In this document: one piece after another, positions 15,095 through 18,449 of the stretch | Numbering within the stretch: position 1 is the stretch's first letter | Layout: every line of letters begins with the position of its first letter | NCBI RefSeq assembly: GCF_003790525.1 | Contig: NZ_CP033635.1 | Source of the DNA: Escherichia coli | Lineage (GTDB): Bacteria; Pseudomonadota; Gammaproteobacteria; Enterobacterales; Enterobacteriaceae | DNA: 64,000 bases | Direction: 5' to 3' (one strand) | Position numbers and translations under genes: made by a program | Notes under the pieces: model-generated | Seen by the model: only the letters and a program-made list of their open reading frames with translations | The model's database searches: none | What the model was told of the DNA's origin: nothing

Positions 15095-16646
<1,552 letters not shown>

Positions 16647-16852
16647 TTAACATCTGTTGTTGTTTTGCACGGTTTTTGTCGGGTATGGATTTGGCGATTG
16701 CTGCGCAAATGCACACTTTCAGGGCAACAACTGCCTGATTTTTGGGCAAGATAATTAACGTTTTCGTATAGTAACAGAGTGAAAGTATTTTAAATCAAGG
16801 GATTAGATTTATGCTTTAATCGCAAATTGCGATCTAAATCAAATTAATCAGT

Positions 16853-16879
16853 TAAAGATAACCGCAGTGGGGCCGACAT
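16853..16879 (+). promoter_or_regulatory. Sigma-28 (FliA) type promoter upstream of aer
   Basis: TAAA at 16853-16856, 15-nt spacer, GCCGACAT at 16872-16879, fitting TAAA-N15-GCCGATAA; about 50 bp upstream of the aer start. Confidence 0.5.
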
Positions 16880-16928
16880 AAACTCTGACAAGAAGTTAAC
16901 AACCATATAACCTGCACAGGACGCGAAC

Positions 16929-18449
16929 ATGTCTTCTCATCCGTATGTCACCCAGCAAAATACCCCGCTGGCGGACGATACCACTCTGATGTCCACTACC
17001 GATCTGCAAAGCTATATCACTCATGCTAATGACACTTTTGTGCAGGTGAGCGGCTTTACCTTGCAAGAGTTACAAGGGCAGCCGCACAACATGGTGCGTC
17101 ACCCGGATATGCCAAAAGCGGCGTTTGCAGATATGTGGTTCACCCTGAAAAAAGGGGAGCCCTGGAGCGGCATCGTGAAAAATCGCCGCAAAAATGGCGA
17201 CCATTATTGGGTGCGGGCCAATGCGGTACCGATGGTGCGCGAGGGAAAAATCAGTGGCTATATGTCGATTCGTACCCGGGCGACGGATGAAGAGATCGCG
17301 GCGGTGGAGCCGCTGTACAAAGCGTTGAACGCCGGACGTACCAGTAAGCGTATTCATAAAGGCCTGGTGGTGCGTAAAGGCTGGCTGGGAAAACTGCCTT
17401 CATTACCGCTTCGCTGGCGGGCGCGTGGCGTGATGACCCTGATGTTTATCTTGCTGGCGGTCATGCTTTGGTTTGTTGCTGCCCCGGTGGTGACGTATAT
17501 CCTCTGTGCGTTAGTGGTATTGTTGGCAAGCGCCTGTTTTGAATGGCAGATTGTCCGCCCGATAGAAAATGTCGCCCGTCAGGCACTGAAGGTGGCGACC
17601 GGAGAGCGTAATAGTGTTGAGCATCTGAATCGCAGCGATGAGCTGGGGCTGACATTACGCGCGGTAGGGCAGCTTGGCCTGATGTGCCGTTGGCTAATTA
17701 ACGATGTCTCAAGCCAGGTGTCCAGTGTCAGAAATGGCAGTGAGACGCTGGCGAAAGGCACCGATGAACTGAACGAACATACCCAGCAGACAGTTGATAA
17801 CGTTCAGCAAACGGTGGCGACCATGAACCAGATGGCGGCGTCGGTGAAACAGAACTCTGCCACGGCGTCGGCTGCTGATAAACTTTCTATCACCGCCAGT
17901 AATGCGGCAGTGCAGGGCGGGGAGGCGATGACTACGGTGATCAAGACAATGGACGATATTGCCGACAGTACCCAGCGCATTGGCACCATTACTTCGCTGA
18001 TTAACGATATTGCGTTTCAGACCAATATTCTGGCCCTGAATGCGGCGGTGGAAGCGGCGCGTGCCGGCGAACAGGGCAAAGGTTTTGCAGTGGTGGCGGG
18101 GGAAGTGCGTCATTTAGCCAGCCGCAGCGCCAATGCTGCCAACGATATTCGCAAGCTGATTGATGCCAGTGCTGATAAGGTGCAATCTGGTTCGCAGCAG
18201 GTACACGCCGCCGGACGGACGATGGAAGATATTGTGGCGCAGGTAAAAAACGTCACCCAGTTGATAGCTCAGATTAGCCATTCAACGCTGGAACAGGCCG
18301 ATGGGCTTTCCAGCCTGACCCGTGCAGTGGATGAGCTTAACCTGATCACCCAGAAAAACGCCGAGTTAGTGGAAGAGAGTGCGCAGGTGTCGGCGATGGT
18401 GAAACACCGCGCCAGCCGACTGGAAGACGCGGTGACGGTGCTGCATTAA
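16929..18449 (+). CDS. aer: Aerotaxis receptor Aer (PAS-FAD sensor with MCP signalling domain)
   Basis: 506-aa ORF; N-terminal PAS region, central hydrophobic hairpin, C-terminal methyl-accepting domain. Confidence 0.9.

Follow-up and report, generated by a model that had tools for sequence, protein, structure and literature searches.

The interval 16819–16879 of the window (the whole 64,000-nucleotide stretch of Escherichia coli DNA that was analysed) is, with a probability of about 0.88, the core of the known aer promoter, and the palindrome at its upstream end is part of that promoter and not a separate device. This promoter, including its assignment to sigma-28 (FliA), is already known; its start site, sigma factor and activator were defined by experiment between 2007 and 2014, and the interval has little discovery value. 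The palindrome would be a composite, made up of the upstream CRP half-site and the A/T flanking it, the last bases of the tract contacted by the alpha-CTD of RNA polymerase and about four neutral bases. A perfect palindrome beside a promoter can thus arise where the half-site of a known activator adjoins neutral linker DNA, and the two can be told apart with a tree-aware footprint.

The 701 bp around the palindrome and the promoter were 100% identical to E. coli SMS-3-5 and others, in which the flanking genes are annotated aer and ygjG (patA). The aer coding sequence (16929..18449, + strand, 506 aa) encodes the aerotaxis receptor and diverges from patA (15132..16511, − strand, 459 aa with a TTG start, as annotated), which encodes an aminotransferase; the divergent spacer between them is 417 bp. 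Alignment of this spacer with that of K-12 revealed no indels and 17 SNPs, and on this indel-free alignment published coordinates were converted as window position = 3,236,005 minus the NC_000913.3 coordinate. The K-12 aer promoter is the same locus, and the −35 and −10 octamers, the 22-bp CRP site, the palindrome and the spacing are all identical to those of the window. Only two SNPs fall in the promoter: an A replaces the G of K-12 at 16850 (position −35, in the gap that separates the CRP site from the −35 octamer), and a T replaces the C at 16868, within the sigma-28 spacer. Both lie outside the positions tested by Hollands 2010; four further SNPs lie just upstream, at 16801–16817, none of them at a tested position. 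All wet-lab evidence on the aer promoter comes from K-12 grown in LB.

The sequence-only reading had proposed a sigma-28-type promoter driving aer, and this proposal was borne out by the mapped start site, by mutations in the −35 and −10 elements, and by FliA ChIP-seq together with RNA-seq. The sequence TAAAGATAACCGCAGTGGGGCCGACAT at 16853–16879 reads as TAAA-N15-GCCGACAT, which is the experimentally defined FliA promoter of aer. Scored against the FliA octamers TAAAGTTT and GCCGATAA with their 11-nt separation, TAAAGATA-N11-GCCGACAT matched at 6/8 and 6/8 and was the sole match in the window; likewise, the FliA-type pattern TAAA-N15-GCCGAYAW occurred once in the 64 kb against 0.02 expected, which is clearly non-random. 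The −35 octamer TAAAGATA occupies 16853..16860 (+ strand, −32 to −25) and is marked by point mutations and by a TAAAG that is invariant in 19 orthologues; the −10 octamer GCCGACAT occupies 16872..16879 (+ strand, −13 to −6) and is marked by the CGA mutation, by a GCCGA that is invariant in the 19 orthologues, and by the FliA ChIP-seq motif centred on it. In the numbering of Hollands et al. the T of the −35 element is at −32 and the CGA of the −10 element at −11 to −9, and therefore the aer start site (+1) falls at window position 16885 (+ strand), with coordinates carried over from K-12 and a precision of about ±1–2 nt. The ATG at 16929 is preceded by a 5′ UTR of 44 nt.

In K-12, aer has a single promoter, TAAAGATA-n11-GCCGACAT (Hollands, Lee, Lloyd & Busby 2010, Mol Microbiol 75:1098; PMC2859248), and primer extension placed its start 6 bp past the −10 octamer (PMC2859248). 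Comparison of this mapped start with the −35 and −10 elements of the sequence-only reading showed that they are compatible, the start being 6 bp downstream of GCCGACAT. Promoter activity was 223 Miller units with FliA and 12 in its absence; substitution of single bases at −32, −30 and −28 brought the 223 down to 23–50 Miller units, and replacement of CGA by GCT at −11 to −9 reduced it to the level without FliA (PMC2859248). In vitro, transcription and melting of the promoter were obtained with E-sigma28 and not with E-sigma70, and KMnO4 reactivity from −10 to +4 appeared with E-sigma28 only (PMC2859248). The comparison with the FliA regulon gave the same answer: aer is listed as a FliA ChIP-seq site, TAAAGATAACCGCAGCGGGGCCGACATA, and its RNA level was 225 compared with 12 in a fliA deletion (Fitzgerald et al. 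2014). FlhDC was considered as a direct regulator of aer and rejected, since according to Fitzgerald et al. FliA transcribes aer and FlhDC does not target it directly. That the palindrome and the sigma-28 element are both chance matches to a consensus, without function, is accordingly a reading of negligible probability. Consensus scans are weak when taken alone, and the window contains 45 palindromes with 7-bp arms, both of which speak for chance; against it stand the excess of the sigma-28 pattern over expectation, the invariance of the −35, −10 and CRP cores across genera, and the direct mutational, in vitro and ChIP evidence. Chance is refuted for the promoter and for the CRP box; it survives for the left arm of the palindrome alone, where it merges with the interpretation preferred here.

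CRP recognizes a 22-bp site with the consensus core TGTGA-N6-TCACA. At aer this site is AATTGCGATCTAAATCAAATTA (16825..16846), whose core TGCGA-N6-TCAAA lies at 16828–16843 and whose centre, at −49.5, falls between 16835 and 16836. The core matched the consensus at 8/10 positions and the 22-mer at 17/22; no other sequence in the spacer reached 8/10, and 29 matches of at least this quality occurred in the window. Published data place CRP at one site centred at −49.5, which is needed for direct activation of aer: with FliA supplied independently, activity was 223 Miller units with CRP versus 53 without it, and binding of CRP to the aer200 fragment gave a single shift in EMSA (PMC2859248). CRP and E-sigma28 alone reconstituted the regulation of aer on aer200 (PMC2859248); this fragment, on which all of these assays were run, starts at window position 16793 (primer D53041) and so includes the whole palindrome. 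Activation by CRP in vitro was seen at limiting polymerase, and CRP was dispensable at high polymerase concentration (PMC2859248). Moving the site by −8, +12 or ±5 bp (to −41.5, −44.5, −54.5 and −61.5) abolished sigma-28-dependent activation, which depends on helical phase (PMC2859248).

FeBABE cleavage located the alpha-CTD at −72/−64 and at −38/−30, that is, at sites centred 18.5 bp on each side of the CRP centre (PMC2859248). In the window, the upstream contact corresponds to the A/T tract GCTTTAAT at 16813..16820 (+ strand, about −72 to −65, centre near −68), which includes the AT that starts the left arm of the palindrome, and the downstream contact to 16851..16856 (+ strand, centre near −31), which overlaps the start of the −35 octamer. 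A GGTTTA or GCTTTA is conserved here in the orthologues, with 0.9–1.5 bits over −72 to −67 (1.05 at −71) and 0–6 Fitch steps, and conservation of GGTTTA at −72 to −67 is consistent with the upstream alpha-CTD site. In K-12, the sigma-28 holoenzyme recognizes the −35 octamer TAAAGATA and the −10 octamer GCCGACAT; both depart from the consensus, and for this reason the promoter requires CRP-cAMP. CRP, bound at the unusual position −49.5, recruits polymerase through contacts of its AR1 with alpha-CTD at about −68 upstream and about −31 downstream.

The same recruitment of alpha-CTD through AR1 of CRP operates at Class I (−61.5, lac) and Class II (−41.5, galP1) sigma-70 promoters, and the alpha-CTD positions of aer relative to CRP combine the two: downstream as in Class I and upstream as in Class II. 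The aer promoter differs from both in its use of sigma-28 and in a CRP site at −49.5, a position from which sigma-70 promoters are activated only very weakly. The comparative data independently support this published model, since the CRP position at −49.5 and the A/T tract of the upstream alpha-CTD contact were kept in every orthologue examined.

The palindrome ATCGCAA-A-TTGCGAT at 16819..16833 (−66 to −52) is exactly the perfect 7-bp inverted repeat with a 1-nt spacer that had been described from the sequence alone. That description also placed it about 20 bp upstream of the sigma-28 element, which holds (the gap is 19 bases), and called it a candidate operator of an unknown regulator; this last part is mostly unsupported, the right arm being a CRP half-site and the left arm not being conserved. 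The regulator that acts at the right arm is CRP. Positions 2–9 of the CRP 22-mer are supplied by the central A and the right arm TTGCGAT (−58 to −52), and its position 1 by the A that ends the left arm (−60), so that AAATTGCGAT within the palindrome comprises positions 1–9 of the 22-mer with one A in front. At the other end, the first two bases of the palindrome, AT (−66, −65), end the A/T run TTTAAT that is contacted by the upstream alpha-CTD. The sole stretch of the palindrome without an assigned role is CGCA (−64 to −61), about four bases; judged by the comparative analysis, it would be linker DNA that completes the dyad by happenstance and drifts freely in other enterobacteria. The dyad axis of bound CRP lies at 16835/16836, not at 16826, the axis of the palindrome.

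Analysis of the abundance of such repeats revealed 45 perfect inverted repeats with 7-bp arms and 0–4-nt spacers in the window, compared with 21.5 ± 5.1 in Markov-1 simulations. For a 306-bp stretch of the patA–aer spacer, with its own composition, the chance of at least one such repeat was 0.13, or 0.034 for a spacer of exactly 1 nt; by this measure the palindrome is only mildly out of the ordinary. No further copy of the palindrome was found in intergenic DNA of the 64-kb window, the only near-match being inside ebgC, and a literal full-text search of the literature with the palindrome and CRP-box strings returned no match.

To compare the conservation of these elements, a protein-guided scan with one genome per species was used; it gave 80 aer loci, among which L002–L019 are the enterobacterial orthologues. 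All 18 of these contained the sigma-28 promoter and a CRP box at the identical offset. Across 19 genomes, information content reached 1.87 bits/column in the upstream CRP half, 1.35 in the downstream CRP half, 1.76 in the −35 octamer and 1.83 in the −10 octamer; the right arm of the palindrome exhibited 1.65 bits/column, the left arm 0.67 and the sigma-28 spacer 0.74. The sigma-28 elements and their 11-nt spacing were kept in 19/19 enterobacterial aer loci, and the distance from the CRP box to the −35 element was equally invariant (TGYGA to TAAAG = 25 nt in 19/19 genomes). At the level of E. coli itself, the 30-mer spanning the dyad and the CRP box was exact in 5,252 of about 5,421 genomes, a count that is uninformative at E. 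coli divergence.

Metagenome contigs were scanned with a pattern made of the invariant CRP, −35 and −10 columns only, and therefore blind to the left arm; the scan yielded 76 haplotypes of the promoter and, with the CDS included, 120 unique sequences. The exact dyad was present in 23 of the 76 haplotypes, with very different sigma-28 spacers and flanks, and 45 of the 76 had a dyad score of 5/7 or less. A first pass on the 19 genomes had taken the left arm as simply neutral, a view that was challenged by these 23 haplotypes; re-tested on a tree, it stands, with marginal retention above the null. The tree was built from the first 450 nt of aer in the 120 unique sequences, and Fitch steps were counted for each promoter column. 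The left-arm columns −66 to −61 required 15, 12, 18, 15, 16 and 12 steps, compared with 12.8–15.5 for third codon positions, 9.7 for the sigma-28 spacer and 13.4 for the region −102 to −73; position −60 required 1 step, and position −59 was A or T only. The left arm thus changes at the neutral rate across the whole tree, though this rate is uneven.

The unevenness bears on another reading, in which the palindrome is a lineage-restricted operator of a dimeric regulator centred at −59, present in Escherichia and Citrobacter-type genomes and lost in those of the Enterobacter type. Such an operator would extend into both the CRP half-site and the alpha-CTD contact on the upstream side, and would serve an anti-activator of aer or be a distal site for patA; it would add a second, CRP-antagonising input to the expression of the aerotaxis receptor (or to patA). 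We regard this as quite improbable. A clade of 23 Citrobacter-type leaves, chosen post hoc, had 0 left-arm steps compared with 1.1 for each non-coding and 2.1 for each third-codon column, where six columns would be expected to accumulate 6.6 (non-coding rate) to 12 steps (third-codon rate), and this favours an operator, as do the perfection of the 7-bp dyad (chance P 0.03–0.13) and its retention in 23 haplotypes whose spacers and flanks have otherwise diverged. In the Escherichia clade, the left arm was indistinguishable from neutral, and in the Enterobacter-type clade (48 leaves) it was the fastest segment, with 7.3 vs 2.5 steps per column; this, with the neutral rate over the whole tree, argues against an operator. 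When lineages were defined by the CDS alone, ATCGCA was shared by 16/72, 12/58, 9/46 and 6/32 lineages, about twice the third-codon nulls of 7.4, 5.6, 4.5 and 3.3 (P=0.03–0.09); ordinary spacer 6-mers such as ATTATC scored equally well in this test, and the signal is weak, non-decisive evidence of lineage-restricted constraint. Compensatory changes between the arms, a further mark of an operator, were absent, as CRP holds the right arm fixed.

Adjacency to patA was examined in the same loci. The dyad was seen only beside a divergent patA (51/51 testable loci), which could be taken to favour an operator; patA was, however, also the divergent neighbour in 59 of the 67 loci that lack the dyad. 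Presence of the dyad does not follow adjacency to patA, and the palindrome was rejected as a patA-side operator. As for binding factors, wet-lab data from K-12 in LB would have missed one that acts under specific conditions, which leaves room for an operator; against this, no published factor is mapped onto the palindrome, and CRP gives a single shift on the dyad-containing fragment. The interpretation of the palindrome as a CRP half-site joined to linker DNA was also compared with the second CRP-activated sigma-28 promoter, that of trg. Here the offset from the CRP box TGTGA-N6-GAGGT to the first base of the −35 octamer is 25 nt, as at aer, and the box is followed by TAAGTAAT-N11-GCCGATGA; trg differs from aer in having TTGTAAA at the position of the left arm and no dyad. 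The palindrome is therefore outside the architecture shared by CRP/sigma-28 promoters, and the lack of a counterpart at trg, like that of a second intergenic copy in the window, weighs against an operator.

Recognition sites of LysR-type regulators typically lie near −65, have a T-N11-A dyad and usually accompany a divergently transcribed LysR-type gene. The aer sequence ATCGCAAATTGCGAT has the ATC-N9-GAT form of the nod-box, centred at −59, and this resemblance to a LysR-type T-N11-A box is a point for the operator as far as resemblance goes. It differs from such a box in the lack of conservation of its left arm, and CRP accounts for half of the motif. No LysR-type gene was present within the roughly 8 kb annotated on each side of the palindrome, where the divergent neighbour is patA, an aminotransferase gene. 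Nac, or another LysR-type regulator, received no support as the binding factor, the Nac ChIP-exo paper assigning patA to NtrC; AtoC was rejected, since its site GCTATGCAGAAAATTGCGCA matches at only 10/20 positions and ygjG is cited only as a sigma-54 promoter. Neither AtoC nor Nac thus fits the palindrome.

Further factors have been placed in the patA–aer spacer. After conversion of coordinates, the published peaks comprised NtrC ChIP-seq at 16526–16606, ArcA at 16655–16680, an aerobic-only sigma-70 peak at 16668 and FNR peak centres at 16768 and 16739; an RpoD-SELEX/H-NS peak is also published for the spacer, with no precise position. A weak NagC site was predicted by FITBAR at about 16736–16758, and NagC was on this account rejected as a factor acting at the palindrome. 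All positioned peaks and predictions (FNR, ArcA, sigma-70, NtrC and NagC) lie to the left of the palindrome, within 16526–16770.

Among these factors, FNR offers a reading that is compatible with the CRP-dependent promoter described above: GCGAT-N4-ATCAA (16829–16842) would be shared by CRP and FNR, and anaerobic FNR could couple aer, patA or both to oxygen. This appears unlikely, though less so than a separate operator. No other 14-mer in the spacer resembles an FNR site as closely (8/10, all positions of the core G-A-T...A-T-C-A-A being matched), and Myers 2013 report an aer/ygjG FNR peak in ChIP-seq and ChIP-chip that was called by all four peak callers, and predict a single, well-scoring FNR site (ln p = −10.23) at −96.5 relative to a ygjG TSS; FNR represses ygjG, where sigma-70 is bound under aerobic conditions only. 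However, the two FNR peak centres are 67–96 bp away from the box's centre (16835.5), a weaker FNR-like 14-mer at 16785–16798 (7/10) is nearer to the peak, and aer has 0 occurrences in the main text of Myers et al.

On the patA side, a sigma-54-like element, TGGCGC-N5-CTGCA, lies at 16573..16558 (− strand) in the patA control region as a consensus-level match. An RNA-level role of the palindrome was rejected by inference: the palindrome is upstream of the aer +1, and the placed patA-side features, namely this sigma-54-like element and the sigma-70, ArcA and NtrC ChIP peaks, are at 16526–16680. The palindrome is very probably not transcribed.

Comparison of the aer loci revealed a conserved block upstream of the aer promoter, AAAGTATTTTAAATCAAnnnATTAGA, at 16781–16807 (−104 to −78 of aer), which is kept in Escherichia, Citrobacter, Enterobacter and Pseudescherichia and partly in Phytobacter. 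Most of this block falls outside aer200, the promoter fragment used in the published K-12 work on aer (Hollands 2010), which starts at 16793. A candidate IHF site lies within the block, where AATCAAGGGATTA (16791–16803) matches the consensus WATCAANNNNTTR perfectly. Closer to aer, in the Enterobacter-type clade (48 leaves; loci L005–L008 and L086–L200), the seven bases between the GGTTTA tract and the CRP box, corresponding to the left arm of the palindrome at 16819–16833, change faster than any other part of the promoter, with 7.3 versus 2.5 Fitch steps (parsimony changes) per column at the left-arm position. These bases vary even among near-identical CDS haplotypes, as in the Phytobacter-like group (CCGCGGA, CTGCCGA and CTGCGGA), and a local hotspot of mutation, or a relaxation of constraint, may account for their fast change in this clade.

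The patA side of the spacer between patA (ygjG) and aer is crowded with published ChIP peaks, namely those of ArcA (16655–16680), sigma-70 (16668) and FNR (16739–16768). The ArcA peaks persist aerobically, which is unusual, and the sigma-70 peak is aerobic-only (430 versus 7). A robust FNR peak containing a single well-scoring motif (ln p = −10.23) was reported in aer/ygjG, together with repression of ygjG by FNR (Myers 2013); the ChIP authors termed the co-regulation of ygjG by ArcA and FNR "surprising" and its physiological significance unclear. Judged by motif match, the best putative FNR-type site of the spacer is the aer CRP box itself (GCGAT-N4-ATCAA, 16829–16842; 8/10, with a perfect downstream half), and the published FNR peak centres lie 67–96 bp from this match. 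An FNR-like 14-mer, GTATTTTAAATCAA, with 7/10 agreement to the consensus, is also present inside the AAAGTATTTTAAATCAAnnnATTAGA block; this block and the centre of the FNR ChIP-seq peak (16768) are 23 bp apart.

A sigma-70-like element, TGGGCA-18-TATAGT, was found by consensus match on the plus strand at 16743–16772, directed towards aer and approximately 110 bp upstream of the aer sigma-28 start; such matches occur at chance frequency. A TATAGT −10 element was predicted for aer from an RpoD-SELEX peak, but with TTGATC given as the −35 (Shimada 2014). Since the element lies outside aer200, the published "single promoter" conclusion applies to that fragment, without this element. In the middle of the spacer, the plus strand carries a hairpin resembling a terminator, GGGCAACAACTGCCT and then GATTTTTGGG (16722–16745), with both K-12 differences (16728 and 16731) located in its loop; the count of terminator-like sites in this region is at chance level. 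Overlapping the hairpin is a TGCAC...GGGCA stretch, a possible NtrC-type site.

On the patA side, RefSeq annotates patA as 459 aa with a TTG start codon at 16511, and the mechanical ORF list contains a longer patA ORF (15132–16622) that starts with the ATG at 16622 and encodes 496 aa. Within this longer ORF, a sigma-54-type element, TGGCGC-N5-CTGCA, was matched to the consensus on the minus strand at 16573..16558. Its position fits both the RegulonDB listing of ygjG under sigma-54 and the NtrC ChIP peak at 16526–16606; sigma-54-type matches in the window numbered 18 against 26 expected, and the patA-side match is at consensus level only. Upstream of this sigma-54-like promoter is an inverted repeat with perfect 8-bp arms, CACAAATG-N7-CATTTGTG (16605–16627), which may serve patA as an architectural site or as the target of a regulator. 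K-12 differs at 16612–16613, which shortens the left arm of the repeat to 7 bp there.
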